From an uncultured Gammaproteobacteria bacterium (lineage in GTDB: Bacteria > Pseudomonadota > Gammaproteobacteria > SZUA-229), in NCBI GenBank assembly GCA_963721085.1, contig CAVRHW010000031.1, positions 65,782 to 129,781 of the forward strand: DNA of 64,000 nt, in the 5' to 3' direction. The notes below the pieces were generated by a model. It had not been told where the DNA came from, made no database searches, and saw only the letters and a program-made list of their open reading frames with translations. The translations under genes and the position numbers were made by a program. Below are positions 631 to 21,036 of this stretch, one piece after another (within the stretch, counting starts at the first letter, position 1; each line of letters begins with the position of its first letter).

Positions 631-1071
631 ATGTCCGAGTATCGCCATATTGCCTGCCCAAAATGCGCCGCCAAAAACCGCGTGCCCGTTGCCAGACTGG
701 GCGCTGGCGGTAACTGCGGAAAATGCGGCACGCCTTTATTCAACCAGCACCCGATCGAGCTGACCACCGCCAATTTTGACCGCATGATCAATAACCATGA
801 CATTCCGGTGCTGGTGGATTTCTGGGCGCCCTGGTGCGGGCCGTGCAAAATGATGGCGCCCGCTTTTGAACAGGCCGCGCAAAAACTGGAACCTCAATTG
901 CGGCTGGCAAAGCTGAATACTGAAAATGAACAGGCGATTGCAGCGCGTTTTAATATTCGCAGCATTCCTACGCTGGCAATCTTTAAGAACGGGCGCATCA
1001 TCGCCCAGCAGGCGGGAGCGATGAATCTTGATGGTCTGTTATCCTGGGCACGCGCAAACGTTTCGCGCTAA
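631..1071 (+). CDS. trxC: thioredoxin 2 (TrxC type, with N-terminal zinc-finger extension)
   Basis: 146 aa. N-terminal CPKC...CGKC cysteine pairs are followed by a thioredoxin fold with the WCGPC active site. Confidence 0.9.
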   Translation: MSEYRHIACPKCAAKNRVPVARLGAGGNCGKCGTPLFNQHPIELTTANFDRMINNHDIPVLVDFWAPWCGPCKMMAPAFEQAAQKLEPQLRLAKLNTENEQAIAARFNIRSIPTLAIFKNGRIIAQQAGAMNLDGLLSWARANVSR

Positions 1072-2396
1072 CTCGCTGACAGAGTATCACGCATCGTGCG
1101 CAGCGCATCTCTGAAACGTTTCGGATCGAAGCGGTCTTCGTTGTCCAGCGTCCGGTAAAGCTCCTTGATTTCTTTTTTAATGCTGGCCTTGCGCGGATTG
1201 CTGAATGGCGCCATTTTGTCCCATGACACGGTCAGCGCACTGATCGCCATCGCAGCCTGTTCGGCAGCGACATAATTTCTGTACTCGCCCCAGACACCTT
1301 CATTCAGCAAACTCAGTGATATTTTCTGAATATCGTTTGCGCTGAACTTGTGTGGCATTATCTTCTCCTTGATCTCTTTTACCAGCGTCTGCATTTCACT
1401 CACTTTTTCATCCAGGGCCGCGTAACCCTCAGTCGAAGCAATATGCATTTCCTTGATCATGGTTTTAAGCTTCCATGCCAGCGCCGCATCGACTGGCACC
1501 GCAACGTTTCGCAGCATCAGCAAACTCGAATCATTAATGGTCACTACCCCCGGGCCAAGGCCGGTGCCGCGTCTTGGCGCCCAGGTTTTTTTCGACATGG
1601 AATGATGACAGCTCTGGCAATCGAACAGACTCAGTTCCGGGAACAGCTTGCCTGTTTGCATGCGATCACTTTTCAGCATTTTTAGCATTGCCTCGGCAGC
1701 GACCACCTGCCCAACCGCCCAGACCTTGACGTGGCTATACGCGATCTTGCGTTCACTATAATCCTTGTCCTGGACAAAATGTGGCGGCTGCAGTGCGCTG
1801 TAGGTATCCATCTCAAAGCTGATACGCGGATGGCCTGCGCCCATAATGTCATGACTGACAAACTGGTGCTTGTTGCCATAATGACATGACAGGCACACCC
1901 GGGTGCGCAGCACGATGTTGTCATTCGGATACAGGCCCTTCGCCACGTTATCTTTATGTGTGGCTTTTTTACTGGTGTGTGTTTTTAACCATTTCTCAGA
2001 ACCGCCGTGACATGCCTCACAACCGATACCGTCTTCTATGTGAAACTTTTTACCGCGAAATTTTTCGGCCACGTAGCTGGCATGGCAGACCAGGCAGGCA
2101 GGTTCTTTATAAGCCGGTTTCATCCCCAGTTTTGTCGTGATGTCAGTAAACTGTTTACCGAACATTTTTTTATACGACTGGCTGTGCGGATCTTTTCTTT
2201 CCCAGGTAATGTATTCGTTGTGCAAAATGTTCGAGTGCTGATAAGCCAGAACAGAACCATGGCAATTACTGCCCGCGCAGGTGGACACGCCTTCGTGCAC
2301 ATATCCGTCCTGCAGCGGCAATGGCGGCTCGCCTGCTGCGTGGCTTATTGTGCTGGTGAGCAGTAAAGCAAAACTGATGCATAGCTTATTTAGCAT
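1068..2396 (-). CDS. multihaem c-type cytochrome (4 CXXCH + 1 CX4CH) with helical C-terminal domain
   Basis: 442 aa. Signal peptide MLNKLCISFALLLTSTISHA. Haem motifs CAGSNCH, CLVCH, CEACH, CLSCH, CQSCH. The C-terminal ~170 aa are K/E-rich and helical, with no haem motif. The ATG overlaps the upstream stop by 11 nt. Confidence 0.85.
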   Translation of the reverse strand: MLNKLCISFALLLTSTISHAAGEPPLPLQDGYVHEGVSTCAGSNCHGSVLAYQHSNILHNEYITWERKDPHSQSYKKMFGKQFTDITTKLGMKPAYKEPACLVCHASYVAEKFRGKKFHIEDGIGCEACHGGSEKWLKTHTSKKATHKDNVAKGLYPNDNIVLRTRVCLSCHYGNKHQFVSHDIMGAGHPRISFEMDTYSALQPPHFVQDKDYSERKIAYSHVKVWAVGQVVAAEAMLKMLKSDRMQTGKLFPELSLFDCQSCHHSMSKKTWAPRRGTGLGPGVVTINDSSLLMLRNVAVPVDAALAWKLKTMIKEMHIASTEGYAALDEKVSEMQTLVKEIKEKIMPHKFSANDIQKISLSLLNEGVWGEYRNYVAAEQAAMAISALTVSWDKMAPFSNPRKASIKKEIKELYRTLDNEDRFDPKRFRDALRTMRDTLSAS

Positions 2397-5300
2397 TTGT
2401 CACCCTGTCGTTGACGGTCCAGACTTTTCCGTTTTTATCCAGATATAATTTCTGCATTTCCTCAAGAGTGAAAGGCCGGGAACCAAGACGCCCGAACACT
2501 GCGATCTGGTTGCCAGTTTCATCCACCGCCCGGTCACGATCAAGCCCCTTGGATAAGGACAGGGCCGGCGCGCCTGTCGGATAGGTCGCAATCAGTTGCG
2601 GGTGCGGTTGCGGACTAAAACCGTAGAAATCCGGCTGGCTGTCCGGCGATGTCATTTGCAGCACTTTCAGACCATTTTTACCGTCGGCAACATAACCGAT
2701 CAAACTGGCGTTTGTGGTCGCCACGATCACATCGCGCGCATCGTTTAATTTGCCGTCCGCGGTAAATAACTGCACCAGCTTCGGTTGCTCGGCTTTTTCA
2801 ACATCGATAATTGCAAGTCCCTGTTTACCAGCAGCGACATAGGCATAGGTCCGCGCCACATAAACACGGTGCGCATCTTTCAGTCTCACCAGCGCTCTGG
2901 TGATGCGCGGTTTGTCCGGATGGGTTACATCAACCACTTTCAGGCCATCTGCATCGGTGACGAACAGATATCTGAATTGCAGGCTGGTCGCGCGCGCTGT
3001 TTTGAGATTGATCACCGACGCCACTTTGGGTGCCAGTGGATTATCCAGATTGACTACCACGATACCGGCATCGGCTGCGATGTAAGCATAATAACCGCCG
3101 ATGGTGATATGTCGTGCGCCGTTCAGGATTCCGTTCGGGTTCCAGGTGAGCGCACGCTTGAGAAAATTATTACGCGCATCGCCATCGGCCATGGTATCTA
3201 CATTGGTTAAAATCAGCCCTTCCTTGCTATCGGTGATCAATGCGTAGTTATAGATGGGATGCATTGCCTGTTCTTCATCATCCACCCGCACGATCTTACG
3301 TGCATTGCGTACCGGATCGATCATCTGGTTTGTTGGCAACGCAATGCAGGTAGCATCACTGGTTTCTATATGTGTGTCGTGTCCAGCCGAGCTGTAAGGC
3401 GCGGTGATAATACGTTGCGCAACGCCCTTGTTGGCAATACTGGCAACATCGTATACCTGCACACCGTTCTTGCCCTGTGCTACGTATACATACTCGCCGC
3501 GTAACTGCAGACAGCGGGTCTCGCCGGAATCGTGCGTGTAGGCCTGCTTCAGTACCCGATTATTATCAAGGTGTTGTTGATAGAAATCCGGATACGCATA
3601 TTTCTGCAAATAGCTGCCGATCACTGCCTGCGGTTCATCCCATTCGGTCACGCGTACCGCTTCGATGTCCTGCTCGGTACCCACCCAGGCATTCAGGCCC
3701 ACAAAGTTGACAAAGTTGGTACCCAGCAATAACAACTGCGACATGATGGCATTGTTATCATCAGCATCCGAAATATGGCAATCGGTGCAGGTTTTTGTTT
3801 CTGTTAACCGTACAGTGTGTGGAAAATGCGGCGCGAAAGCCTGCGAACTAAAACCAGCGCTGGAAATGGGCGGCTGCTGCACATATATATGTTCACGATT
3901 GGCATTGGTCGATGACAGCACCAGCGCAGAGGATGATCGTACTGGCGCGATGCGACCGTCTTTTAACGGCCCGCGTTTGCCCAGCTGGAACATCTGGTCA
4001 CGCGCCACCTGTGGGTTATAAGTTGCGTAGTTCCGCGTCTCGCCACCTTCAAAATGCAGGCGCGGTGTTTTGTTGTTGGCTTCTATCGGCAGATGACAGC
4101 CGCCGCAACTGGTGGTCCATGAAGTATGACAGGAATAACATGTCATTTTGCTGTTGCTGTGCGCACGGTCCTTCGGTTTAACGCCCAGCCCCCAGGCCTG
4201 GGTGCTGGTGTTTGTGCTCATTAGTTTGGCGCGCGCGGATCGTGCATTGTAATGTTTACTTTTTGGATTCACCGCATCCTTGACCAGACTCATTTCCCAT
4301 TGCAGTCCTGGTGTCAGCATCGAGCGCTGGTACAGTTTTCCATTGATCCATTGAAAACGTTTTCTGCCATCGGGGTTGCGCAATAAAGTCAGATCGGTGC
4401 CACCGGGAGGGGCCGCCGGGCCCGAGGTGCGCAAACTGGGATACGCATCCGCAGTGCCATGGCAGTCCTTGCATGTGATCTCGACCGCAGCCGCGACTTC
4501 ACCGTGAATATTTCCGGTGCCATGACTGTCCTGTGCAAAATGGCAGTCAACACAATGCATGCCCTTGTCCATGTGAATCGACGCCATGTGCACGGCCTTG
4601 CGGAATTTATCCGGGTCCTTGTCATCCACGATCTTGCCATTCTTGTCGAGCAGATGGCCATGACGATCACGTTTGAACACCGCGCGGAAATTCCAGCCGT
4701 GGCCGTGATAATCCGCAAACTGGGTGTCTTTCAGTTCTGGATTCAGATCACGCACATTACGCAAAAAGGTTTCATCCGCCCATTTACCACGCGGCGCGGC
4801 GCCTTCCGGGTTGCGCTTGTAAACTTCACGCAGCTCGGCGGCGGTTGGATACTTCTGTTTTTTCGGCCACATGAACGGTGCATCGGATTCATAATCCCAC
4901 ATGGTGTAACCCATGAAGGTATTCATGAACATATTCGGCTGGTGCATGTGACAGGTCATGCACTGCGATGTCGGTATCGAACGCGTGAAGCTGTGCCTGA
5001 TCGGATGCCCTTCCTGGTGCTTCGGGATAGTAGGATCGATGGTCTCGGTAGTGCCGGTATGACCATCGATACTATACGGACCCGAATGTAACGGATCGCG
5101 ATCATTAGCGTATACGCTGTGGCAGCCTGCGCAACCCGATTGACGATAATCACCCGGCTGATCGTTGGTACCCATAAACCACATATGTGGATCATTCAAA
5201 CGTGTTTTGGTGAGATTGATCAGCGGTACCGCAATACGTCCCCCGGTGCCAGGGCCGCGATTGGACTGTTTAAAATCCGGGCGACCATCTTCTTCCAGTT

Positions 5301-6129
5301 TTTGCAATTCGCCTGATACGTTTGGAATACCGACTTCGGGAAATACATTGCCGAGGTTGCGGCCGCCATTTTCAAACACGCGGAAAATATCGGCAGGGGG
5401 CGTGACTTCCCAGGCAGGCAAAGGATAGAGCGCCGGCAGCACGCCTCGCGCCAGCATTTTTGCATCGGGCTCCTGCGGATTCAGGATCTCGGCAGGCGTG
5501 CCATCGCGCATATAGCTTTCACCCAGAATGTAATGCTTCAGCGGCAGGATGCCGTTGTTATAAGACGCGCCGCCCCAGAGCATCGCCGAGGTACTCATTA
5601 AACTACGTTTTGCCGCATCGATGATTTGCTGGTGACAGGCACCACAGGCTTCATCGGCGACACGGTAATCTGATGGATTAACAAAACGAACAAACTCGGG
5701 GCTTTCGCGATTCAACAAGGTGTAGCTGCTGCGCGGATTGGCACTCGACGGCAGATGCCAGGCATCAGGATAGCGCGGCAGCACATGCGCTTTTTCCATG
5801 GCCCGCAAATAAGCGACGTCTTTCTGTTTTGTGCCAGTCGGTTTTAATATCTTACTATCGCCGCCATGACAGTCGATACAGGCCAGGTTCACGTCTCCGC
5901 TTGGGTGCATCGTGGGCGAATCGGTTTTCGTGTGGCAACTCACACAACCCGTGTTTTTGGCGTCTACCTCTGCGGGCAACTGCGAAGCCGGTGCGTTCGG
6001 CGCAGTGACATAATGTCGCTCGACAGGATGTTCACCTTCCGATGCATAAACATTCATCACAGGCATTAGCAGGCCTATGCAGGCACAAAGCGCTAACCGT
6101 TTTAATACTATGTAAGTTCTATATTTCAT
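2386..6129 (-). CDS. decahaem c-type cytochrome fused to a C-terminal LVIVD-repeat beta-propeller
   Basis: 1247 aa with an N-terminal signal/anchor (LALCACIGLLMPVMNVYA). Ten CXXCH motifs: CVSCH, CIDCH, CGACH, CAGCH, CMTCH, CVDCH, CKDCH, CYSCH, CGGCH, CTDCH. The C-terminal ~430 aa carry repeated LVIVD-type blades (YVYVAQGKNGVQVYDV, YAYIAADAGIVVVNLDNP, YLFVTDADGLKVVDVTHP, YAYVAAGKQGLAIIDVEK, GYVADGKNGLKVLQM). Confidence 0.85.
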   Translation of the reverse strand: MKYRTYIVLKRLALCACIGLLMPVMNVYASEGEHPVERHYVTAPNAPASQLPAEVDAKNTGCVSCHTKTDSPTMHPSGDVNLACIDCHGGDSKILKPTGTKQKDVAYLRAMEKAHVLPRYPDAWHLPSSANPRSSYTLLNRESPEFVRFVNPSDYRVADEACGACHQQIIDAAKRSLMSTSAMLWGGASYNNGILPLKHYILGESYMRDGTPAEILNPQEPDAKMLARGVLPALYPLPAWEVTPPADIFRVFENGGRNLGNVFPEVGIPNVSGELQKLEEDGRPDFKQSNRGPGTGGRIAVPLINLTKTRLNDPHMWFMGTNDQPGDYRQSGCAGCHSVYANDRDPLHSGPYSIDGHTGTTETIDPTIPKHQEGHPIRHSFTRSIPTSQCMTCHMHQPNMFMNTFMGYTMWDYESDAPFMWPKKQKYPTAAELREVYKRNPEGAAPRGKWADETFLRNVRDLNPELKDTQFADYHGHGWNFRAVFKRDRHGHLLDKNGKIVDDKDPDKFRKAVHMASIHMDKGMHCVDCHFAQDSHGTGNIHGEVAAAVEITCKDCHGTADAYPSLRTSGPAAPPGGTDLTLLRNPDGRKRFQWINGKLYQRSMLTPGLQWEMSLVKDAVNPKSKHYNARSARAKLMSTNTSTQAWGLGVKPKDRAHSNSKMTCYSCHTSWTTSCGGCHLPIEANNKTPRLHFEGGETRNYATYNPQVARDQMFQLGKRGPLKDGRIAPVRSSSALVLSSTNANREHIYVQQPPISSAGFSSQAFAPHFPHTVRLTETKTCTDCHISDADDNNAIMSQLLLLGTNFVNFVGLNAWVGTEQDIEAVRVTEWDEPQAVIGSYLQKYAYPDFYQQHLDNNRVLKQAYTHDSGETRCLQLRGEYVYVAQGKNGVQVYDVASIANKGVAQRIITAPYSSAGHDTHIETSDATCIALPTNQMIDPVRNARKIVRVDDEEQAMHPIYNYALITDSKEGLILTNVDTMADGDARNNFLKRALTWNPNGILNGARHITIGGYYAYIAADAGIVVVNLDNPLAPKVASVINLKTARATSLQFRYLFVTDADGLKVVDVTHPDKPRITRALVRLKDAHRVYVARTYAYVAAGKQGLAIIDVEKAEQPKLVQLFTADGKLNDARDVIVATTNASLIGYVADGKNGLKVLQMTSPDSQPDFYGFSPQPHPQLIATYPTGAPALSLSKGLDRDRAVDETGNQIAVFGRLGSRPFTLEEMQKLYLDKNGKVWTVNDRVTNAK

Positions 6130-6207: not shown

Positions 6208-7950
6208 TTAATACCTGAACACAAAATTACCCAGCACGCTGTAATCCAGCGTATCGCCAAACATCTGTTTGTAGCCCTTGCCCGGTACCAGCACCGCGGC
6301 TGACAAACGCAGCACAATATTCTGGCTGTACAGGGGCCGATAAATACTGGCCAGCGAAACATCCCAGCCGATATCGTTGCTGATATTACCCTGATTCCGC
6401 GCTGCTTCGAGCACTGCGGTGTTATCAAACCAGAGATGATTAATATTGGTGGTGAGGCGCAATAATGGAGTCACGTCAAAATCCATTCCATAACCGATTA
6501 AACGTATGCCCGGGTTGGTAAAATTGGACTGCCCCTCTTCTTTTGAGGAACGCATCGAATTCAGCAGGCCGTTACGTCCCGACAGCGCAACACCACCGCC
6601 ACCAATATTGGCCACCGGCTGCCGAATCCAGAAACTGGTGTCCGCACCTGCAATCAGGGGATTTTCCAGAATCGAATCGAAACCGGTGGAGCGGTCATCG
6701 TAAGGATTTTTATCGCCACTACCGTATACCAGCGACAGGCGCGCACGAATCCAGTCGTAATCGCGGGCCAGTTCGGCCGCCGCAAAAAATGCGCTGATAC
6801 GTGATGGCTGAATACTGAAGGTACTGTGGTTTTCATTGCCGCTGACGTAATAAGTAGAAACACTAACATCAGTTCTACCAAAATGCCCGTCACCGTTATA
6901 CCCGAGATAAGTCACCTGGTATTCGCGCAACTGCTCGGTTCCGAGCGATGCCGGCCTGACCAGAAATCCGTTGTTGTCGTAATAATTATCTTTGTTCTCG
7001 CGATTGATGTTGTGTATCAACGACAGCTCAGAAGTGAAGCCAGGTGTCGGAAAATCCTGTCGATAAATATTCGCAACGAATACATCATCATCGCGCAGCG
7101 GTTTAGTCGTATCATTCAGTCCGCTGTTGGTGTCTTTTTCAATGCGGCGGAACCAGGCGATGTTGTACTGATAGATATTATTATCGCGGGTTCCAAAAAG
7201 GCGAATCCCGACCGGGTTGTCTATAAACAGGAAACCGCGAAAATCCGCGGTGAATGGTTGAACGCCTACACGCACACTGTCAAAGTCATAGCGCTCCGAA
7301 ACATTGCGCAAATGCTTGTCGATATACAGGTCCTGAATACCCACATGAGAATCCTGGCGCGTCTCACCCTGGTTGGGATCAATCGACAGAACGCGTAATT
7401 CCTCCGTGCGCACATAGTTTGAATTTACTACGGCAGTAAATCGGTATTCATAATCCGGTGGACGGAAAATGGTATCGCCCTTGTAATAATCTGCGCTGAT
7501 TATGAAGTTCTGGTTCAGCACCAGCTGGTCACCGCTGCCGATCACATCAATACTGCCGGGATTATTCGTGGTGGCAGGCCCCACCGGTGTCGGTAAACGC
7601 CGCGGCTCGATGACACTGTCAGAGATCAGTGACAGATCTAAAAACCAGTCATCATGAACTGGCTTATCGCCTTTCAGTGTGTTCTGGTGATAGGGGTCGT
7701 ACCAGTGTTCTTTGGTGACACCCAGGGTGTCGAGCAAACGCCAGCGATCGGGTACCGGTATCGACTCGCGTTTCAGATCAGGGCCCGGCGGTTCGATCGC
7801 ACCCGGATTATATACTGGTGCTGAACCCGAGGAACGTTCCGTGCTCGCACCCGGACGTTGCCGTTGCCAGTCATCATCTGCATGGCTTGCAGTCGCCGAT
7901 AATAAAATGGCGATGCTGATAGTTAATACGGATGCTCGCTTATTTACCAT
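6208..7950 (-). CDS. outer-membrane beta-barrel protein, function unknown
   Basis: This is the frame of ORF 6208..8091. My preferred start, ATG 7950, gives signal peptide MVNKRASVLTISIAILLSATASHA-DDDW. The sequence is long, rich in alternating-hydrophobic strands and in Y/F/W/G/N/D, and ends ...NFVFRY (aromatic C-terminus typical of OM barrels). The start overlaps the upstream stop by 11 nt. Confidence 0.7.
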   Translation of the reverse strand: MVNKRASVLTISIAILLSATASHADDDWQRQRPGASTERSSGSAPVYNPGAIEPPGPDLKRESIPVPDRWRLLDTLGVTKEHWYDPYHQNTLKGDKPVHDDWFLDLSLISDSVIEPRRLPTPVGPATTNNPGSIDVIGSGDQLVLNQNFIISADYYKGDTIFRPPDYEYRFTAVVNSNYVRTEELRVLSIDPNQGETRQDSHVGIQDLYIDKHLRNVSERYDFDSVRVGVQPFTADFRGFLFIDNPVGIRLFGTRDNNIYQYNIAWFRRIEKDTNSGLNDTTKPLRDDDVFVANIYRQDFPTPGFTSELSLIHNINRENKDNYYDNNGFLVRPASLGTEQLREYQVTYLGYNGDGHFGRTDVSVSTYYVSGNENHSTFSIQPSRISAFFAAAELARDYDWIRARLSLVYGSGDKNPYDDRSTGFDSILENPLIAGADTSFWIRQPVANIGGGGVALSGRNGLLNSMRSSKEEGQSNFTNPGIRLIGYGMDFDVTPLLRLTTNINHLWFDNTAVLEAARNQGNISNDIGWDVSLASIYRPLYSQNIVLRLSAAVLVPGKGYKQMFGDTLDYSVLGNFVFRY

Positions 7951-9868
7951 GGCAAACATCTGTTTCGGTTGAATCCAGGAACGGTGACTGCGGGCACTGC
8001 ACAAACCGCAGGTGTATACCCATTGGCGCAAGATTATCGGCGCGCATCGCTGCCGGTGCATTATTGATGGTGCCCAGTATTGCACTGGCATTGTTCAGGC
8101 CAAGAAATGAAACCATGTCATCCTGATCGACGCCATCGCCGGAAACACCAATGCCGCCGACCAGAATATTGCCACGATAAATCGGCACGCTACCTGGAAA
8201 CACCTGCATGCCATTGGCAAGTCGGCTCAGCGTGGTACAGTTTTGCGGCGCATCCGGGCCGCCACCTTTGACATAAACCACGTGCTGAATAACGCGGTTC
8301 ATCACCAGGTCAAGCTGCATACCGTCGGAAAACGGGCTCCATTCGCTGATCGGTTTGCTAAACGGGCCGTTGACCGAACCAACCGTGCCGTCCGGAAAAA
8401 ACGGGCGCGACAGATTGCCGCCGGAACGGTCGGCAAAGGCATATGCACCATCGGCCAGTGCGGTCGGTGCGCCGAGAAAATTTCGCACCGCAGACACATA
8501 ATCAGCAATGCTGATCTGGATGCCGCTCGGGCTCGCATCCGGATTTCTATAAATCGTGTTCGGTACCGCGCTCAGTTCAGCCGCGCCGTGGGTGCCGGAA
8601 AAAAAAGTTGCGGTGCGCGCTTTCTGCAGAGACACGTCGGTACCGAACACCGGGCCATCACGCGTGCGCGCAATACCCAGTATTTTGCCATTGGTATCAA
8701 CCACCGACACGGTGACGCGCGCCTGGCTGCCCAGCGGCCGGCGAATTTGTGAACGCGCGCGATTTGCGACTGCCAGCGCACTGCTGATCAGCTGTTTCAC
8801 TTCGCTGGCAGACAATGCATTCGCGCCATCACTGCCCGCAGTCGGCGGGAAGCGATTCACATTGCTGTTATCGACCAGCACAAAAGCATCCAGCCCGGGA
8901 TAATCAACCGGGTCTGCGCGTATCCCCGAATCGGGCTGACCAAAGGCCTTGCCATCGATCACTGCGCCTGCGGTATAACCGGTCACTGCCTGCAGACTGC
9001 CTGCACTGCCATCGATGCTGGCAAAACTGGGCGCATTGCCCGGCGTTGTCGCCAGGTCAGAAAAATCGACGTCAGAGAACCGCGCCACCTTGCCGTCCAG
9101 TGTAATCTTTTCTCTGCGATCAACCGGCGCGGCAAAACCATAACTGCCGGCGACTGCAATCAGTTCATCGATATTGCGATCGCGATCGTTGGTATTCAGA
9201 TCCAGTCCATAGACACCATCCGCAATCACACCAATACCACCGACCAGCGCGCCGTTTTTATATAAAGGCAGACCACCGGGGTCGGCGGACAAACCCAGCG
9301 GCGTGCGATGCGGTCCGGCATCTGCACCTGCGCTAAAGCGCGTATTCAGATCCGAACAGGGTAAATTACTGAACTGCACGCCGAACAAAGGGCCGCCCGG
9401 CTGGCCGGTTTCACCTGGATTAAAATGTTCCTGCACGATCTGGCTGGCGGTTCGCGTACTAAAGGCATTGCCTTCGGATGACAGATAGGCACCTGTCATC
9501 GCTTTTGAAATCGCGGCCAGGGTATCCGGGATCACATTGATGCCTTCCAGACCACCGCTGACATTGCGTCCCGAATCAATGGTGATATCGGTCGATGCCG
9601 AATTCATTCTGAATACCGCGAGCACGTTGCCCACGCGATCGACAACCGCAATGGTCCCCGCAACGCCCTGCGCCTGCGCTTCTGTCACCGCCTGAGCAAT
9701 AATGGTTTCGGTTTCGGCAACACTGAGAAAACTGCTGGCATTGGTGCAGCTACCGTTGCACTCTACTGCTCCCGCGCCGGTACCTGCTGTCGAATCACCA
9801 TTGCCACTGCTGCAGGAGAGCAGAACACTCAGCACACCAAAACAACCGGCTTTGAGAATGCTATTCAT
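7940..9868 (-). CDS. lipoprotein with two GlcG/HbpS-like (DUF336, haem-binding/degrading family) domains
   Basis: Frame of ORF 7940..9883. ATG at 9868 gives MNSILKAGCFGVLSVLLSC-SS (lipobox LLSC). There are two copies of the DUF336 signature: PLYKNGALVGGIGVIADG, and PIYRGNILVGGIGVSGDGVDQDDMVS preceded by VVDRVGNVLAVFRM / VVDTNGKILGIARTRDG. The start overlaps the upstream stop by 8 nt. Confidence 0.7.
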   Translation of the reverse strand: MNSILKAGCFGVLSVLLSCSSGNGDSTAGTGAGAVECNGSCTNASSFLSVAETETIIAQAVTEAQAQGVAGTIAVVDRVGNVLAVFRMNSASTDITIDSGRNVSGGLEGINVIPDTLAAISKAMTGAYLSSEGNAFSTRTASQIVQEHFNPGETGQPGGPLFGVQFSNLPCSDLNTRFSAGADAGPHRTPLGLSADPGGLPLYKNGALVGGIGVIADGVYGLDLNTNDRDRNIDELIAVAGSYGFAAPVDRREKITLDGKVARFSDVDFSDLATTPGNAPSFASIDGSAGSLQAVTGYTAGAVIDGKAFGQPDSGIRADPVDYPGLDAFVLVDNSNVNRFPPTAGSDGANALSASEVKQLISSALAVANRARSQIRRPLGSQARVTVSVVDTNGKILGIARTRDGPVFGTDVSLQKARTATFFSGTHGAAELSAVPNTIYRNPDASPSGIQISIADYVSAVRNFLGAPTALADGAYAFADRSGGNLSRPFFPDGTVGSVNGPFSKPISEWSPFSDGMQLDLVMNRVIQHVVYVKGGGPDAPQNCTTLSRLANGMQVFPGSVPIYRGNILVGGIGVSGDGVDQDDMVSFLGLNNASAILGTINNAPAAMRADNLAPMGIHLRFVQCPQSPFLDSTETDVCHGK

Positions 9869-11561
9869 TGTTCGTACGCACATCGCTGTTGCCCATCAGC
9901 AAAGTGTCGGGCTCATGAAATTTATGACAGGTAATACAGGTCGATGCCAGCTTGTCGCTACTATGCGCACCGCCGTGGCAGTCGCGACAGACCTTGATTC
10001 CTGGCAACAACACATCTTCACTGCTCTTTGACTCTTTCGCCTTATGGCAGTCTTCGCATTTTGAATTGCGATGCGCGCGATGATCAAATTCACCCTTGCT
10101 GAACCAGCGCTGCGAAATATGCACCTTTGGAATTCGCCAGCCATATTCTGCAGTCGGGTCACGCATCACCTTGTGGCACAGATTGCAGCTACGAAACTCG
10201 ATCACTTCTTCTTTAACATCGGCGGCCTTGTCTTTTGCCCAGGCCATCGCGGTTTTCATTTCTTTCGGTGTTAATGTTTTTCCCGGAATGCGTCTTTTCC
10301 TGACGATGTCGGGCGCCGGGAAATCGGTGTCCTGATAATTTCCCCTCAGCGCCATGAATGCGTAAAACTCATTTAACATCGAGGTCATGGTGCCCAGGTC
10401 GGCGTGAGGCAATTGTCGATCGGGAGCGTTCTGATCAAAGTCCAGGCGATGACATTCCTGACAGTGCACTTCCATCTGGATGGGCAGCATATAATTGCCA
10501 CTGGCATCGGTTTGATGACAGCTGCTGCAATTGAGCACCCGGTTTCCTGTCGGACTATCCACACCATTTACATCGAGATGCACCTTGTGTGAAAAAATCA
10601 GCCCGGTTTCCTGTTTAAGCCCGGGTGTATCCAGACTGACACGGTGCCACACCGGTTTACCGATACCCGGGTCGATATCAGTTAGCAGACGCGGCCGGAA
10701 CTCGACATGATGTTTTCCAAAATCTTCAATATCAGCCAGTTTTGTTTCTGTTAGCTTGCTCAAATGCTCATGACAGTTGCTGCATAAAGCCTGATCCTGT
10801 CTTACCAGAAATGCTGTGCCCTTGTGTTCCTGATGACAGTCGGTACAGCTGGCATGTGTTAATTGCCTGATATTGAATATCTCGGGGTCCGCATGTACCG
10901 TGACATCTTTATGGCATGCGAGACAGGCCGCGTTTTTTACTTTTTGAAATGGTTTTACATGGCAGGCATTGCAGTTACTGGCGAAATGTTTGTGCTGCGA
11001 ACTGATTTCACCACTCAGCCAGAGACCGTCATCAGGTGCAACCGGTATTTTGTGCAACAGCTTGCCTGTGTCCTGATTAAAAAATCCGGCCATAGGGACA
11101 ATAAGGCATAATAGCAATATCAGCACGAAGCCAGTCCAGGCAGCACGACGCCGACTTAACCAGGTGTCTTCCAGCTTTCTTGCCGTCTGGTGCTCACTCT
11201 GAACATCAACAATGTCGTCGTATACCTGCTCGACGGTAATGTCGATATCAATGGGTGCAGCGCCAGGTTCGACCGTAATCCTGTAAGGACCCACCTGTAT
11301 TTCGCCGCGCCCTTTGAACGAACCGCTTTGCGAAAAACGGCCGTTAACATGAAGCCCGGCCTTGCTCAGCGAAGTAACACCAACCTGGCCATTTCCCGCA
11401 ACGGTGAGCTGCGCGTGCTGGTAAGCCACACCCAGATCGGAAAGAAAAATGTCCTGGTCGGTCGCACGGCCGATACTGATGACCGCTTTATTGAGCACCT
11501 GTTCATTCTGAACAATTGTGCCTTTGCGTTTATGAACAATATGACGAATACGTGTTTGCAT
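9861..11561 (-). CDS. FHA-domain, single-pass membrane-anchored decahaem c-type cytochrome
   Basis: 566 aa. The N-terminal ~100 aa are FHA-like (ISIGRATDQDIFLSDLGVAYQHAQL...LHVNGR). A positive-inside TM follows (SRRRAAWTGFVLILLLCLIVPMAGFF). Then ten CXXCH motifs: CNACH, CLACH, CTDCH, CSNCH, CSSCH, CQECH, CNLCH, CEDCH, CRDCH, CITCH. Confidence 0.85.
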   Translation of the reverse strand: MQTRIRHIVHKRKGTIVQNEQVLNKAVISIGRATDQDIFLSDLGVAYQHAQLTVAGNGQVGVTSLSKAGLHVNGRFSQSGSFKGRGEIQVGPYRITVEPGAAPIDIDITVEQVYDDIVDVQSEHQTARKLEDTWLSRRRAAWTGFVLILLLCLIVPMAGFFNQDTGKLLHKIPVAPDDGLWLSGEISSQHKHFASNCNACHVKPFQKVKNAACLACHKDVTVHADPEIFNIRQLTHASCTDCHQEHKGTAFLVRQDQALCSNCHEHLSKLTETKLADIEDFGKHHVEFRPRLLTDIDPGIGKPVWHRVSLDTPGLKQETGLIFSHKVHLDVNGVDSPTGNRVLNCSSCHQTDASGNYMLPIQMEVHCQECHRLDFDQNAPDRQLPHADLGTMTSMLNEFYAFMALRGNYQDTDFPAPDIVRKRRIPGKTLTPKEMKTAMAWAKDKAADVKEEVIEFRSCNLCHKVMRDPTAEYGWRIPKVHISQRWFSKGEFDHRAHRNSKCEDCHKAKESKSSEDVLLPGIKVCRDCHGGAHSSDKLASTCITCHKFHEPDTLLMGNSDVRTNNE

Positions 11562-11575
11562 GCTCTATTCGCCAG

Positions 11576-12472
11576 CTACCAGTAGAAAAATACGGAAATA
11601 ATATGCGCAATCAATGCCGCAAGCAGCGCAAATGACAGGGGCACATGAATGTACAGCCAGAGATCAAGATAGGCTTTATACTGCATATCACGACGTAGCT
11701 GCTCAACCAGGCGCTCTTTCTGGCCAATCAATAAATCAGTGAGCTGCAACATCGTCGCGCCGGTGTCGTCACTTTCTTTTGCAATACGGCTCGCCATAAA
11801 CGCCATGGTGCTATCAAGATCGCGTTTCTCCATTTTTTCCTGCTGATATTTTGCTTCCTGCACCAGCCCCTGCAGATCATCCGATTTTTTGCTGCCAAAC
11901 ACGATGTCAAAAACACTGCCGCCGAGACGCGTGCGCTGAATACTTTTCAACACGCGTTCGTGGGTTTCGGGATTAATTTCGCTGGCCAGCACAAGTGCCT
12001 GTCGGTCGATGTCCTGTATCTGGCGAATTAAAGAGTCGGGTGAAGATTCGCCACGGTTGTCGGTCATCAATGTCGGAAAATGCAGGTAACAATAAACGCC
12101 GTAAATGCCACTGAAAATAACCAGCATCATCAGCACGTAGGCCAGGGTGTGAACATTCCAGCCAAACTGGAACCCGGTGTGCAAGGTCGCGAGCACGATC
12201 AGCGCCAGCCCGAGATACACATGCGCCGACAACCAGCCCGCAGCGGTGCCCATGCTGGAGCGATAGCGACGTTTGCGTATACCGAACCACATCAACCAGA
12301 CAATCAATAACGCCGATATCGTGCCCAGGGTGTAACCCAGCCAGGTGCCGCCATTCGGCGGCATGGTGGGATTATCCAGCGCATAGGCCAGAATAGCGCC
12401 TGTGCACAGCGCCACGCTCCACCAGAGATAGCGCGAGCCACGGTAACTGAGGATTGTCTGGTGCATCGCCAT
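11576..12472 (-). CDS. integral membrane protein with two His-x13-His helices (candidate dihaem b-type transmembrane electron carrier)
   Basis: Frame of ORF 11576..12589. ATG at 12472 lies 2 nt after the upstream stop. I read about five hydrophobic helices. One is SAHVYLGLALIVLATLHTGF and another is YIHVPLSFALLAALIAHIISVFFYW, each with His at i and i+14. A ~120-aa polar loop lies between helices 4 and 5. Confidence 0.7.
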   Translation of the reverse strand: MAMHQTILSYRGSRYLWWSVALCTGAILAYALDNPTMPPNGGTWLGYTLGTISALLIVWLMWFGIRKRRYRSSMGTAAGWLSAHVYLGLALIVLATLHTGFQFGWNVHTLAYVLMMLVIFSGIYGVYCYLHFPTLMTDNRGESSPDSLIRQIQDIDRQALVLASEINPETHERVLKSIQRTRLGGSVFDIVFGSKKSDDLQGLVQEAKYQQEKMEKRDLDSTMAFMASRIAKESDDTGATMLQLTDLLIGQKERLVEQLRRDMQYKAYLDLWLYIHVPLSFALLAALIAHIISVFFYW

Positions 12473-12474
12473 GT

Positions 12475-14886
12475 TTATGAGCGCCCTGCGTAGTTCGCCA
12501 GCTGATCCGGCTTGATGCGTATCGCGGCACCGGTCGGGCAGGCGCGCACACAGGCCGCACCACCGCTGAGGTCTTTGCACATATCGCACTTCACTGCTTT
12601 TTTCACCGCCTCGCTATCTTTTTTGCCATAGCCTTTGGGCGCCTGGCCGGGGCCGGGGCCAATACCGAACAACAACCATGGGATCAGGCCCGGTTTTTTC
12701 GGTGGCTTTGTCGCCATCTGGATCACACCGTAGGGACAGTTGCGCTGACAGTTACCGCATCCGATACAGTTATCGGCAACATACACTTCGCCGTCGGGCG
12801 CACGCTTGATCGCATCGGGAGGACAATCCTTCATGCAGTGCGGATGCTCGCAATGACGACATGAAGTCGGCACATGAATCGCCGCATAGGTGGGGCCGGC
12901 TTCACGATCCAGCCGCGAGGTTCCATCGTGCGTTTCCGCGCAGGCTTTTTCACAATTGTCGCAACGAATGCACAGGGACTCATCGATCAATAATACATCG
13001 GTGGCTTCGCCAACCCCCTGGCTGACCAGGAAGGAAATAATGCTGTTGCCACCCTGCTGCTGCATGCGCAGATTATTTGAAACACGCTGCTTGTATTCTT
13101 TTTCGATGTTGCGCCTGAGCGCCTCATCCTGTTCGAGCAGATAACGAAACTCATCCGCGCCCAGTTCGATGGTTTCGGTCGCCGTGGCTGCGCGCACGGT
13201 TGCCGTACGGCGGCTTTTACCCATGATGCCCATTTCACCAACATAGTTGCCCGCGGGCAGATACGACATCACCACTTCGTGTTCGCCAAGACGGCGCGAA
13301 ATTGTTACCGATCCTCGCCGGATCACATGAAAGCTTTCTGCTTCATCGCCTTCATTAAACAATACTTCACCAGCGCGATATGACTGCAGTTTTGCCTTTT
13401 TGGCAATTGTTGCCAGGCTCTGAATCGGTGTGGTATTGGCAAATCGCGTCTGCAGGGTGCGCACAATAAACGCTTCGTCAATCGTGCGCTTCACCGACTC
13501 GACAGAGCTGATCAATTTATTCATCGAGCGCCGAGGCGTTTCGATCAACACACATTTTTTGCCTGCGCGTATGGTTGCCGAGCGACGACGACCAGACAAT
13601 AAACTCATTTCACCGAAAAACTGGCCCGGGGTTAACGCAATTGTTTTGTCAGGATCGTTCTCATCGATTTCAATCAGCACTTCACCGCTGATAATGCAGA
13701 AAAATGTATTGGTGTAATCATTTTTACGAAAAATATAATCGCCCGGGGAAGCAACATATATTTCACTGTCGAGAAAAAACTCACGTAACTGCAGAACCGT
13801 GAGGCCAGAAAGCAACGGCACTATCTTTCTGATTGAGCGTAATGCCTGGTTTACTGCGGGCTTGCCGGGTATTTTTTCAAACCGCGCCTTAAGCAAAGGC
13901 TCGTCTGCGGGCTCGACCGGATTGCCCTCAATGTATTCGACAACTTCGTATCCCTGGTTCATACATTGCTTGATCAGGGGGTAGCCGCCCAGCGCACCAA
14001 TAATATAAATGCCGGGCACATTGCTTTCGTATTGATCGGACAACTCGGGCACTGCACCGATATCTGCATTCGGAAAACGAATGCCGCAGGATTCAATGAA
14101 CTTGCGCGGCGGAATCGCGCCAAGACGTGCGATGATGCGATCGAAAGGCACTTCCGCTTCGCCTTCGGGTGTTTCCAGCACCAGTACGGCTTTTTGCGCG
14201 GCACCTTCGGGGCTCTGTTCGATGCGTACCGAATTGGCCTGATAAAAACATTCGATCACGCCTTTTTCGATCTTGTCGAGTATCGCGGCATTGTTCGCTT
14301 CCTTGGCGCGGGTGAACTCGGGCTGGCGATTCACTATATATACCGTATTGTGGCCACATAGCGCGAGCGCGTTTTCGATACCGGCATCGCCGCCGCCAAT
14401 GACAACAATATGTTCATCTTCGTATTCGTCAGGATCGTCCAGGGTGTATTGCACCAGTGGCGCTGCTTCCCCGGGAATACACAGCATACGTGGATTTCCC
14501 TGCACCCCCACGGCCAGAACGATATGCTCGGCGCGGATGGTTTCACCCTGTTTCAGGCTGATTTCGAATCCACCCTTGCTGCCACTGATCGCCGAAACTT
14601 CAGCATTGCATTTGAGATTGACCCGATGCGTGTCGATTCCGTGTTGCCAGGTATCCAGGACTTCTTCTCGTTTGGCGGCGGTGAACTTGATCGGACTGCG
14701 CAGCGGCAGCACACGCGGTTCGTCCATCACGTGCTTGCCTTTCTGGTAGTGGAATATGGTGTTACAGATATGAGGTTCAGCTTCGAGCAATATATGGTTA
14801 ATGCCCAGTTCTGCGGCACGTGAAGCCGCGCTCAGGCCACCGGGGCCCGAACCGATGATGGCGATTCGATAGTTGTTACCACCCAT
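12475..14886 (-). CDS. fusion protein: FAD/NAD(P)-binding pyridine-nucleotide-disulfide-oxidoreductase-like domain + two cyclic-nucleotide-binding domains + four-cluster [4Fe-4S] ferredoxin domain
   Basis: 803 aa.
- N-terminus: IAIIGSGPGGLSAA (dinucleotide fold) and a second GGGDAGIENA.
- Two cNMP signatures: FGEMSLLSGRRRSATIRA and VGEMGIMGKSRRTATVRA.
- C-terminal cluster motifs: CIRCDNCEKAC, CRHCEHPHCMKDCP, CIGCGNCQRNCP, CDMCKD...CVRACP.
- No signal peptide or TM. Confidence 0.85.
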   Translation of the reverse strand: MGGNNYRIAIIGSGPGGLSAASRAAELGINHILLEAEPHICNTIFHYQKGKHVMDEPRVLPLRSPIKFTAAKREEVLDTWQHGIDTHRVNLKCNAEVSAISGSKGGFEISLKQGETIRAEHIVLAVGVQGNPRMLCIPGEAAPLVQYTLDDPDEYEDEHIVVIGGGDAGIENALALCGHNTVYIVNRQPEFTRAKEANNAAILDKIEKGVIECFYQANSVRIEQSPEGAAQKAVLVLETPEGEAEVPFDRIIARLGAIPPRKFIESCGIRFPNADIGAVPELSDQYESNVPGIYIIGALGGYPLIKQCMNQGYEVVEYIEGNPVEPADEPLLKARFEKIPGKPAVNQALRSIRKIVPLLSGLTVLQLREFFLDSEIYVASPGDYIFRKNDYTNTFFCIISGEVLIEIDENDPDKTIALTPGQFFGEMSLLSGRRRSATIRAGKKCVLIETPRRSMNKLISSVESVKRTIDEAFIVRTLQTRFANTTPIQSLATIAKKAKLQSYRAGEVLFNEGDEAESFHVIRRGSVTISRRLGEHEVVMSYLPAGNYVGEMGIMGKSRRTATVRAATATETIELGADEFRYLLEQDEALRRNIEKEYKQRVSNNLRMQQQGGNSIISFLVSQGVGEATDVLLIDESLCIRCDNCEKACAETHDGTSRLDREAGPTYAAIHVPTSCRHCEHPHCMKDCPPDAIKRAPDGEVYVADNCIGCGNCQRNCPYGVIQMATKPPKKPGLIPWLLFGIGPGPGQAPKGYGKKDSEAVKKAVKCDMCKDLSGGAACVRACPTGAAIRIKPDQLANYAGRS

Positions 14887-19535: not shown

Positions 19536-21036
19536 ATGAAGAAGACGCAGCGCATTATCAATCGATTTCTGTCTTTGTCCCAGGCCGCTCGCCTCGCGGG
19601 TATCAAACGCCGCACTCTACAAAAACGCATTCAGGATGGGGACATCCTCACCTTTGAAGGCATGGTGTCGCTCGAAGAACTGCTCAAGGCCTACCCGCAG
19701 ACCGAAATCGAAGATAACACCATGATTGAGCATTCAAAACACATTAAGCATTCGGCCTACAACAAGCTGCTGCACGATGCCAGCAGCCTCCCTGATTCTG
19801 AAGTCACTCTCTACCCGCGTTACTGCGCTCAGCCAGGAACTCAGCGAAACACGTTCATTGGCTAAAAAATATGTCGAAATTGTCGATTCCCTGAAAACTC
19901 GGCTAGGCTCATTAGATGCCAGCCAGCAACAGCTGGACGCACTAAAGAACTGGCTCGAAGAAGCTACCGAAGCGCCGAGCGCCGATGTACAGGCTTCCGC
20001 ACAACTTATCGCAAATGATACTTTGTTACGACTTATGACTGCACATGTACGAATTCTACCCAGTGGCCATGACTTTTTTGTCGAGGGCACCTCCAGCCTG
20101 CTGGAAGCCGGGCTTCGCGCCGGGCTTGCGCTGAATTATGCATGCAGCAACGGCAATTGCGGCAAATGCAAGGCGCGACTGGTGTCTGGCCAAATCAAGC
20201 AGATCCAGCCGCACGATTACACGCTCAGTGAAGAACAGAAAGCCACTGGCCATTTCCTCATGTGCAGCAATGCTCCGGTCAACGATGTTGTGATCGAAGC
20301 CATCGAAGCCAGTAATGCGCGTGATATTCCGCAGCAGCAAATTACCGCCAAAGTGAAAAAAATTGAAATCAAGGATGATGTTGCTCTATTACATTTGCGC
20401 ACACCGCGGACGAATCGCCTTCGGTTTTTCGCCGGGCAGTACGTTAACCTGAGCATGGGCTCGGAATTTCCCAGCGCTGAATACTCGATCAGCAGCTGCC
20501 CATGTGATGATATGAACCTGCATTTTCAAATTCCTGAAACTGCGGATGACGCCTTTGCTGATTTTGTTTTCCACGATCTGAAAAGCGGTGACTCCATAGA
20601 TGTTGCGGGGCCTCGCGGTGATTTTGTGCTGGATGAAGACTCTGTGCGTTCACTGGTATTTATTGCCTGGCACACAGGTTTCGCGCCCATCAAAAGTCTC
20701 ATCGAGCATGCTATGGCGCTGGATGATGCTGAACACATACATTTATTCTGGATTACCGCGAAACCAGAAGACCGCTATCTCAATAATCTTTGTCGCGCCT
20801 GGCAGGATGCACTGGATAACTTTCATTACCACACTATTGATGCCGACCTGCTAAATGGTGGGGCGGGCGCACACCAGCAGGCGATGAATGCTGTCTTTGA
20901 TCAACTTGAAAATCACGCGGACCATGATTATTACATTGCCGGGCTGGACTCACTGACCACGGCCTGCAGCAATGTGGCGCAGCAGCGTGGCGTCCCTGCC
21001 ACACAAATTATGGGCGATGCCATCAAACACGAATAA
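19536..21036 (+). pseudogene. HTH + coiled-coil + plant-type [2Fe-2S] ferredoxin + FNR-like FAD/NAD(P) reductase; reads as one gene interrupted by a +1 frameshift near 19800-19865 (alternatively two genes)
   Basis: ORF 19536..19865 has an HTH-like N-terminus (LSLSQAARLAGIKRRTLQKRIQDG). ORF 19726..21036 continues it in the +1 frame: ...STRVTALSQELSETRSLAKKYVEIV, then CSNGNCGKCKARLVSG...MCSN (Cx4CxxC...C), then FNR motifs (AEYSISS, GPRGDF, AWHTGFAPI). Confidence 0.65.

Follow-up and report, generated by a model that had tools for sequence, protein, structure and literature searches.

A flavin-, cyclic-nucleotide-binding- and ferredoxin-domain fusion as candidate electron-input subunit of a di-haem/multihaem cytochrome conduit in an uncultured gammaproteobacterium

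The closest described relatives of the locus reported here are the PCC4 gene clusters, which, according to the accessible portions of He et al. 2017 (PMC5566968), encode a porin, periplasmic cytochromes with 4, 5 and 10 haems and a five-helix inner-membrane protein (IMP) with an SGxxG motif and two Wx3Hx13H motifs. We analyzed a gene, here called gene A, in a stretch of 64,000 nt (the window) of contig CAVRHW010000031.1 (GCA_963721085.1), from an uncultured Gammaproteobacteria bacterium of the SZUA-229 lineage. Gene A (12475..14886, minus strand) encodes an 803-aa fusion of a flavin adenine dinucleotide (FAD)/NAD(P)H domain, two cyclic-nucleotide (cNMP)-binding (CNB) domains and a four-cluster ferredoxin domain, as identified from its open reading frame (ORF) and translation and from matches in Pfam, NCBIfam and the PDB. 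It is the first of seven tightly packed minus-strand genes, A to G. On balance, we favour the view that A is the cytoplasmic electron-input subunit of an inner-membrane conduit formed by A, B and C, which would be controlled by the CNB domains and extended towards the cell surface by further cytochromes.

PCC4 was first seen in genomes from drinking-water filters and in iron-oxidising Zetaproteobacteria. In its subgroup II, a gene described as an 'Fe-S cluster (pfam13247) gene' lies upstream of the IMP gene. The cluster was modelled as a conduit from an electron donor to the quinone pool, the IMP was proposed to be quinone-reactive, and the IMP signature was tied to di-haem proteins of the ferric-reductase/cytochrome-b type (He et al. 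2017, PMC5566968, accessible portions). The same layout was named ptdABCDEFG and its function called 'completely unknown' in the accessible portions of a later report (Elbon et al. 2024, bioRxiv 10.1101/2023.11.21.568154). By gene order and description, the family of A matches the Fe-S gene of PCC4 subgroup II and PtdE, to which neither paper assigns a function. The accessible portions of both papers contain no mention of an N-terminal FAD/NAD(P)H domain or of four clusters.

For comparison we used loci taken from public contigs, which are denoted below by L-numbers. The gene order of L038 resembles that of PCC4/ptd: tetrahaem cytochrome, CNB/iron-sulfur (FeS) protein, IMP with five transmembrane (TM) segments and decahaem cytochrome. 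The homologue of A in L038 shares 59% identity with A over the full length, and B, C and G of the window are also homologous to L038 proteins. The window shows the core arrangement of PCC4 subgroup II/ptd, with an Fe-S gene immediately preceding the IMP gene, a decahaem cytochrome (C) and a tetrahaem-type cytochrome (G, 4 CxxCH). The PCC4 porin and pentahaem cytochrome were not found: the 595-aa pentahaem protein and the 553-aa putative porin of L038 gave no tblastn match in the 64-kb window. These two are replaced by an HbpS-like lipoprotein (D), a different putative barrel (E) and an LVIVD decahaem cytochrome (F). Since B, C and G are homologous and the pentahaem protein and porin are absent, the window appears to combine the inner core of PCC4/ptd with a different outer module. 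The Uet cluster of Tenderiales, which was considered because of its LVIVD and multihaem proteins, was rejected as a different system.

Gene A is a new member of a widespread, earlier noticed family, in an operon variant that is not described in the papers found. Databases were searched for this exact domain combination, as the first-pass annotation of the window had proposed; the combination turned out to be common rather than rare, and the family had already been noted within the PCC4/ptd clusters.

The polypeptide encoded by gene A

The ORF reported at 12475-14886 by the first-pass annotation was recovered with 803 codons, from ATG to TAA, and lies on the minus strand, which had not been given. 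All motifs quoted in that annotation are present in the translation, and the three-part fusion architecture it had put forward was upheld by Pfam profile scores far above the gathering cutoffs; chance origin of this set of motifs is no concern. Gene A is also the head gene of the cytochrome operon as had been claimed, and the gap of 2 nt to gene B is correct (A stop codon TAA at 12477-12475, B start codon ATG at 12472-12470). No signal peptide, TM-like segment or CxxCH motif was found in the sequence of A. In the absence of a signal peptide or TM segment, the protein is predicted to be cytoplasmic.

Residues 1-345 (13852..14886, minus) form a two-dinucleotide domain of the thioredoxin reductase (TrxR) fold, as delimited by Pfam, Foldseek and alignment columns. 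The FAD motif IGSGPGG occupies residues 11-17 and the NAD(P)H motif IGGGDAG residues 163-169. Matches to Pyr_redox_3 (E=5.2e-33, residues 10-297) and Pyr_redox_2 (E=1.6e-27) together span residues 6-312. In the AlphaFold model the pLDDT of this domain is mostly 65-95. The best Foldseek match was the bacillithiol disulfide reductase Bdr (7a7b, E=3e-25), and TrxR-like ferredoxin-NADP+ reductases (FNRs; 2zbw, 3ab1, 3lzw, 6gas and 5ygq) matched with E values of 1e-21 to 1e-24.

Conservation was assessed in 42 close homologues (at least 60% identity) and in 32 distant full-length members. Residues G12, G14, G17, G166 and D167 are invariant in the homologue alignments, and the FAD and NAD(P) glycine motifs are kept down to 31% identity. 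N186-R187...R193 is invariant in the close homologues. We take this stretch to align with the Arg cluster that contacts the 2'-phosphate of NADPH in TrxR. From this Arg signature, the domain likely prefers NADPH.

Residues 120-160 contain no CxxC motif, and the single Cys136 lacks conservation, being G in 36 of the 42 close homologues and variable in the distant ones. The N-terminal motif is GSGPGG or GxGPAG across the homologues, and the Bdr-type Cys (GxGPCG) is absent. The scores for TIGR01292 (low-Mr thioredoxin reductase; 55 bits, cutoff 343) and TIGR04018 (YpdA/Bdr bacillithiol disulfide reductase; 122.8 bits, cutoff 339.9) place A outside both families. Because the CxxC of TrxR and the Cys of Bdr are absent and the family cutoffs are missed, the flavin domain is not a disulfide reductase, and a role of A as thioredoxin or bacillithiol-disulfide reductase was rejected.

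The domain has the TrxR fold and the FAD and NAD(P)H motifs and lacks the redox disulfide, which is the combination found in TrxR-type FNRs. With the FNRs of Bacillus subtilis (YumC, 3lzw), Chlorobaculum tepidum (3ab1) and Thermus thermophilus (2zbw), and with Bdr/YpdA (7a7b), it shares a CxxC-free, two-Rossmann FAD/NADPH fold (Foldseek E 1e-22 to 1e-25; TM-scores 0.6-0.7 relative to the target). It differs from them in sequence scores, which are far under the family cutoffs, and from Bdr in the missing Cys of GxGPCG. The domain seems to resemble most closely enzymes that have ferredoxin as partner. Ferredoxin is the natural redox partner of TrxR-type FNRs; in A, a ferredoxin is fused in the same chain by way of the two CNB domains.

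The ferredoxin domain, of the HycB/HydN/DmsB type, comprises residues 630-797 (12496..12999, minus), as defined by Fer4 matches and an alignment with HycB. Its 16 Cys are arranged in four motifs, CxxCxxCxxxC, CxxCx4CxxxCP, CxxCxxCxxxCP and CxxCxnCxxxCP: CIRCDNCEKAC at residues 639-649, CRHCEHPHCMKDCP at 676-689, CIGCGNCQRNCP at 707-718 and CDMCKDLSGGAACVRACP at 767-784. All 16 are invariant in the 42 close and the 32 distant homologues. Pfam matches to Fer4_7, Fer4_9, Fer4_11 and Fer4_10 are spread across residues 670-787, and an alignment of residues 632-796 covers HycB of formate hydrogenlyase over its full length (7z0s_B, residues 5-172, E=1.4e-15). In NCBIfam, similarities to HydN, AegA, DmsB, NrfC and DsrO were detected. 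No equivalog cutoff was reached, and the domain is therefore a relative, not an orthologue, of these named subunits.

The spacing of the four Cys motifs is the same as in HycB, HydN, the N-terminal part of AegA, DmsB and NrfC. Unlike the HycB, DmsB and NrfC types, the ferredoxin of A is cytoplasmic, fused to flavoprotein and CNB domains and provided with an extra hydrophobic insert, and it is paired with a di-haem protein of five TM segments instead of an NrfD-type or hydrogenase partner. The insert, KPGLIPWLLFGIGPGPG, is rich in Gly and Pro and lies between motifs 3 and 4 (residues ~727-760, window 12607-12708, minus). Its residues W737, L738, G741, G743, P746 and G747 are invariant in the close homologues, and HycB-type ferredoxins are gapped at this place. 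KPGLIPWLLFGIGPGPG may serve in docking to the membrane or to B.

Between the flavin and ferredoxin domains lie the two cNMP-binding domains, each with an intact phosphate-binding cassette that has the canonical Glu and Arg-[ST]-Ala. The first comprises residues ~355-475 (13462..13824, minus; PF00027 and an alignment with regulatory subunits of protein kinase A, PKA), with the cassette FGEMSLLSGRRRSAT (E426, R435, A437). The second comprises residues ~485-606 (13069..13434, minus; best PF00027 stretch 501-587), with the cassette VGEMGIMGKSRRTAT (E551, R560, A562). The cassette motifs read FGEMSLLSGRRRSATIRA at residues 424-441 and VGEMGIMGKSRRTATVRA at residues 549-566. PF00027 (cNMP_binding) matched in two stretches (E=4.8e-39, 132.7 bits, gathering score 27.5), placing A well inside this family. 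The tandem region, residues 381-606, gave a single continuous alignment with PKA regulatory subunits (5kbf, E=2.7e-19). All 42 close homologues have the same Glu, Arg and Ala residues in the two cassettes.

Membrane partners and relatives with other heads

Gene B (11576..12472, minus) encodes a protein of 298 aa with five TM segments, a putative di-haem b cytochrome of the inner membrane, as judged by motifs and a helix map. It carries W80x3H84x13H98 in TM3, S121GxxG125 in TM4 and W272x3H276x13H290 in TM5; His84, His98, His276 and His290 are invariant in homologue alignments. Length (~300 aa), number of helices, SGxxG on TM4 and the two Wx3Hx13H motifs agree with the conserved IMP of PCC3/PCC4. 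Weak matches to Ni_hydr_CYTB were obtained for 18 of 18 B members (best 6e-08) and to DUF4405 for five of the 18. No match to PF01794 (ferric reductase/NOX) was found for B at E values up to 1, so that B falls outside this family although the geometry of the His pairs is alike.

The RKRRYR loop that follows helix 2 is assigned to the cytoplasm by the positive-inside rule; His84 and His276 are therefore predicted to lie on the cytoplasmic side and His98 and His290 on the periplasmic side. This layout would be the geometry of a transmembrane di-haem wire. Its outline resembles that of NOX/FRE, MsrQ-Fre and FoxB, in which electrons pass from cytoplasmic NAD(P)H through flavin and two b haems, held by His pairs of TM3 and TM5, to an acceptor on the far side. 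In contrast to NOX/FRE, whose family does not include B, the dehydrogenase here is a separate subunit of TrxR fold with four FeS clusters, and the acceptor is a decahaem cytochrome.

Between TM4 and TM5, B has a helical insert of ~130 aa (residues ~135-265), which is predicted to be cytoplasmic and may offer a platform to the ferredoxin domain of A. Its length varies, being much shorter in L065, and B-like proteins of other phyla carry one too. Thr137 of B is invariant in both B alignments and Thr222 in the alignment of closer homologues; both residues are predicted to be cytoplasmic and could be targets of phosphorylation.

Gene C (9861..11561, minus) starts 14 nt downstream from B and is conserved in this position in syntenic loci. 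In its 566-aa product, an N-terminal cytoplasmic FHA domain is joined through one TM segment (residues 138-156) to a decahaem cytochrome c (10 CxxCH) in the periplasm, according to Pfam matches to FHA and cytochrome c3/c7. The FHA domain is similar to GarA/OdhI, which was the sole PDB sequence match of C. This phosphothreonine-binding domain, ahead of the TM anchor (residues 1-137), is conserved in the L001 and L038 homologues. Its presence on C points to a second signalling input into the conduit, through Ser/Thr phosphorylation.

Nearly all of the best 120 database matches of A are ~800 aa long and have the same Pfam set. Names among the matches are 'cyclic nucleotide-binding domain-containing protein' or 'CRP-like cAMP-binding protein/thioredoxin reductase/Fe-S-cluster-containing hydrogenase component'. 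At E<1e-30, A was matched by 912 clusters (50% identity), with full-length members reaching down to 31% identity, and relatives are encoded by at least 537 species-representative genomes. The carriers include isolates of Tahibacter, Pseudomarimonas, Zavarzinia and Oceanibacterium, metagenome-assembled genomes of Alpha-, Beta- and Gammaproteobacteria and one of Acidobacteriota; the closest named relatives are uncultured Gammaproteobacteria. Proteins of the window itself are deposited in NCBI/ENA, on a contig of 134 kb. Synteny was counted in 70 loci with enough downstream DNA. Gene B directly follows A in 58 of them, the order is permuted (C-D-E-F-G-A) in eight, and A is alone in four. The A-B-C order is common to Alpha-, Beta- and Gammaproteobacteria.

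Relatives without the FAD domain (446-520 aa) begin at the first CNB domain and consist of two CNB domains and a four-cluster ferredoxin; they were found in Nitrospinota, Nitrospirota and Thermodesulfovibrionia. In Candidatus Acidiferrales, a form of 723-742 aa has a head resembling the N-terminal part of NuoG (Fer2_4, Fer4_Nqo3) on the CNB-ferredoxin core, and a NuoE-NuoF fusion gene with FMN and NADH sites lies ahead of its gene. In all six loci examined for the FAD-less and NuoG-head forms (L082-L087) the CNB-ferredoxin gene is followed by a gene for a protein of 268-294 aa without Pfam match and then by a cytochrome c gene. The three membrane proteins checked (L082-L084) have five TM segments, two Wx3Hx13H motifs and SGxxG, and the cytochromes of the same loci have 8, 3 and 10 CxxCH. 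Genes for c554-like and HbpS-like proteins lie near the Acidiferrales clusters. The CNB cassettes are kept in the short form inspected (P0243) and in the NuoG-head form (P0495).

As this layout recurs, the conserved unit appears to be a CNB-polyferredoxin, a di-haem membrane protein and a multihaem cytochrome. Two unrelated flavoprotein heads are attached to the conserved core, one with FMN, a recognised NADH-dehydrogenase module, and one with FAD and an NAD(P)H-binding fold. This interchange of heads is the strongest indirect argument for a flow of NAD(P)H electrons through A into the wire. What is new here is the recurrence, in several phyla, of a unit of two CNB domains and polyferredoxin, di-haem protein and multihaem cytochrome, with no head, an FAD domain or a NuoEFG-like head.

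An input of electrons from pyridine nucleotide to FeS, suggested by the first-pass annotation, fits the fold of the flavin domain (nearest to Bdr/YpdA and TrxR-type FNRs), its lack of redox-active Cys and the swap to a NuoEFG-like head in Acidobacteriota. This part of the earlier suggestion thus stands as a proposal that the comparison of relatives supports well, and A probably has an electron-input role.

The proposed conduit, its control and alternatives

From domain identities, conserved cofactor ligands, gene linkage and the interchangeable NAD(P)H-dehydrogenase heads of relatives, all of which were observed, we infer the cofactor content, the direction of electron flow, independence of quinones, the identity of the ligand and the gating itself. 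NAD(P)H would reduce the FAD of the TrxR-type, FNR-like domain, and the electrons would run through the C-terminal ferredoxin domain by way of its four [4Fe-4S] clusters. They would then enter the cytoplasmic-side haem b of B (His84/His276), cross to the outer haem b (His98/His290) and be taken up by the membrane-anchored periplasmic decahaem cytochrome C. From there they would go on by way of G, D, E and F, ending at a periplasmic or extracellular acceptor. The PKA-like CNB pair, placed in the chain between the flavin and FeS domains, would switch the conduit in response to cAMP or cGMP, and the FHA domain on C perhaps adds control. Tight control is to be expected, because export of NAD(P)H electrons bypasses energy conservation and dissipates the membrane potential.

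Several findings weigh against the proposed conduit or its gating. PCC4 subgroup I is without the Fe-S gene, according to the accessible portions of He et al. 2017 (PMC5566968), which implies that the di-haem protein can operate with a different partner, possibly quinones. For B, the structure model is of low quality (pLDDT 64), its five long helices fitting the TM segments, and neither Foldseek against the PDB (E<=0.001) nor a PDB sequence profile search gave a match for B. In the AlphaFold model of A the FAD and CNB domains are confident, and the ferredoxin domain has a pLDDT below 50. With this value and a pTM of 0.57, the relative geometry of the flavin, CNB and FeS domains is not interpretable. 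In the 32 distant members the Glu of cassette 1 is kept in 31 and its Arg in 19, and the Arg of cassette 2 is kept in 21 and its Glu in 19. The cassette Arg is thus lost in 11-13 of 32, and cNMP binding is therefore probably not universal in the family. Cyclase genes lie near A in three of 80 proteobacterial loci (phmmer), which is about the rough chance expectation, and a single-sequence phmmer search of the 64-kb window detected no cyclase. The literature searched yielded no biochemical or genetic data on any family member.

Cyclase genes do occur beside particular relatives. A CHASE2-adenylate/guanylate cyclase gene adjoins an Acidiferrales cluster (L084, 11512-13863, minus), and in a gammaproteobacterial locus a CHASE2-cyclase gene is located upstream of the A homologue (L008, 145-2325). 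A cyclase-AAA-TPR gene (L004, 1-3246) ends 135 nt upstream of an A homologue that is 75% identical to A of the window, and a small cyclase gene lies near the A homologue of L042 (6697-7782). In L082, a neighbouring gene encodes a protein with GAF, HD-GYP and cNMP-binding domains. This adjacency recurs across phyla, too sparsely among the proteobacterial loci to convince statistically, and is suggestive only. Taken with the invariant Glu and Arg of the cassettes in close homologues, it makes the allosteric gating of A by cAMP or cGMP, as the first-pass annotation had proposed, plausible; the sequence would fit either ligand and cannot tell one from the other. Enzymes gated by cAMP through a fused CNB domain are known, and A shares the canonical cassettes with the mycobacterial acetyltransferase Pat and the tandem arrangement with the regulatory subunits of PKA. 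Unlike in these two cases, no CNB-gated redox enzyme or electron-transfer chain turned up in the literature searched.

The CNB domains might instead be a spacer, a dimerisation module or a site for some other ligand, with the conduit being constitutive or controlled elsewhere, e.g. by the FHA domain of C. We regard this as rather unlikely, even though it accommodates the degenerate Arg and Glu of the cassettes in ~35-40% of the distant full-length members, the lack of a phmmer cyclase match in the window and the presence on C of a signalling domain of its own. Known ligands of CRP/FNR-type CNB folds moreover include haem and 2-oxoglutarate. Against this alternative, none of the 42 close homologues departs from Glu, Arg and Ala in either cassette, and the far-removed P0243 (short) and P0495 (NuoG-head) retain the cassettes as well. 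The alternative also has to account for CHASE2-cyclase genes beside two unrelated versions, those of L008 and L084, and for the gene for a GAF/HD-GYP/cNMP-binding protein beside the L082 version.

The outward flow in the proposed conduit is favoured because it is downhill in redox potential and because negative charge leaves a cytoplasm that is negative inside. With the opposite direction, the operon would serve electron uptake or the oxidation of Fe(II)/Mn(II), and A would reduce NAD(P)+ or pass electrons to another cytoplasmic acceptor. TrxR-type FNRs are reversible enzymes, and the short FAD-less forms occur in Nitrospinota and Nitrospirota, both of which would suit such a flow. So would the origin of PCC4 in iron oxidisers and water-filter genomes and the drawing of electrons from donor to quinone, as far as the accessible portions of He et al. 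2017 (PMC5566968) go. Flow from c haem potentials to NAD(P)+ is strongly uphill, however, and would bring negative charge into the negative-inside cytoplasm, and none of the proteins A-G matched a proton-pumping or bifurcating module in Pfam or NCBIfam. Many carriers are in addition named as genera of cultured isolates (Tahibacter, Pseudomarimonas, Zavarzinia, Oceanibacterium), which we take to be aerobic heterotrophs. Inward flow therefore appears unlikely to us.

Least probable, to our judgement, is that B is a quinol/quinone-reactive cytochrome b that carries the main traffic and A an accessory redox or nucleotide sensor modulating it: the quinone reactivity proposed for the IMP and the subgroup without Fe-S gene (He et al. 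2017, PMC5566968, accessible portions) and the four loci in which A lacks an adjacent B would agree with this, but 16 invariant Cys for clusters, plus a full NAD(P)H/FAD site, would be a high cost for a pure sensor, and in Acidobacteriota the head is swapped for a bona fide NADH-dehydrogenase module.

Outer genes of the operon and wider meaning

The remaining genes of the operon encode the putative outer module and one further cytochrome. Gene D (7940..9883, minus) encodes a probable lipoprotein of 647 aa with three stretches similar to HbpS (haem-binding/degrading, GlcG-type; PF03928, E=1.2e-20). It is syntenic in most long loci, and HbpS-like genes also lie beside the Acidiferrales clusters L084 and L087. 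Gene E (6208..7956, minus; translation and synteny) encodes a protein of ~582 aa, its start codon being uncertain, with a signal peptide and the C-terminal sequence ...FVFRY. No match was found for it in Pfam, NCBIfam or PDB sequences; from its position and the C-terminal aromatic residue, E is a putative outer-membrane barrel. The D/E/F module was present in 33 of 43 long loci.

Gene F (2386..6129, minus; Pfam) encodes a secreted decahaem cytochrome c of 1247 aa (10 CxxCH) with C-terminal LVIVD beta-propeller repeats. It is partly similar to ExtM (NCBIfam E=2.3e-21, far under the cutoff). Its homologues are 59-75% identical in the full-length syntenic loci, and one short match at a contig edge is 44% identical. 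Gene G (1068..2396, minus) encodes a periplasmic c554-like cytochrome of 442 aa (Pfam Cytochrome_C554) with four CxxCH and one CxxxxCH, and is 41% and 34% identical to two c554-like paralogues of L038 (7167-8504 and 8542-9996), each with the same number of both motifs. The extra CxxxxCH (C40AGSNCH in G) is conserved in both paralogues, and the corresponding cytochrome of the PCC4/ptd type is there called 'tetrahaem'; with this motif, G and the paralogues may bind five haems. PDB sequence searches with E, F and G gave no matches. In the operon, promoter-like sites were below the chance expectation and terminator-like sites within ~1 standard deviation of it.

Two further ORFs of the window were inspected. 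The first (19726-21036, plus) codes for 436 aa with 2Fe-2S ferredoxin and FNR-type NAD-binding domains and an N-terminal extension of ~100 residues without match. It was considered as an equivalent of PtdC and rejected: no homologue was found near A in any other locus, and it is therefore probably unrelated to the operon. The second (22343-22936, minus) codes for 197 aa of an AI-2E family transporter, covers profile positions 128-271 of 327 and may be truncated or frameshifted.

Published models of PCC4/ptd-type clusters, in their accessible portions, have the quinone pool as the connection of these systems to metabolism or do not specify one, and include neither a direct NAD(P)H head nor control by a second messenger. 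The domain content of A and its replacement by a NuoEFG-like head point to a wire that leads directly, and under regulation, from NAD(P)H to the outer and periplasmic cytochromes. More tentatively, and with appreciable doubt, the unit of two CNB domains and polyferredoxin, di-haem protein and multihaem cytochrome could be a widespread second-messenger valve for quinone-free electron export, with interchangeable heads, in Proteobacteria, Acidobacteriota, Nitrospirota and Nitrospinota.

If the proposal is true, the operon would be a bacterial counterpart of the logic of NOX and ferric reductases, built from different parts, and, as far as the literature searched shows, the first CNB-gated electron-transfer chain. 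Cyclic nucleotides would then directly control extracellular or periplasmic electron transfer. Several carriers of A are in culture, among them Tahibacter aquaticus DSM 21667, T. soli, Pseudomarimonas arenosa CAU 1598, Oceanibacterium hippocampi CECT 7691 and Zavarzinia sp. CC-PAN008, so that the idea can be tested. It would also suggest a role for these abundant clusters in bacteria of soil, freshwater and the sea.

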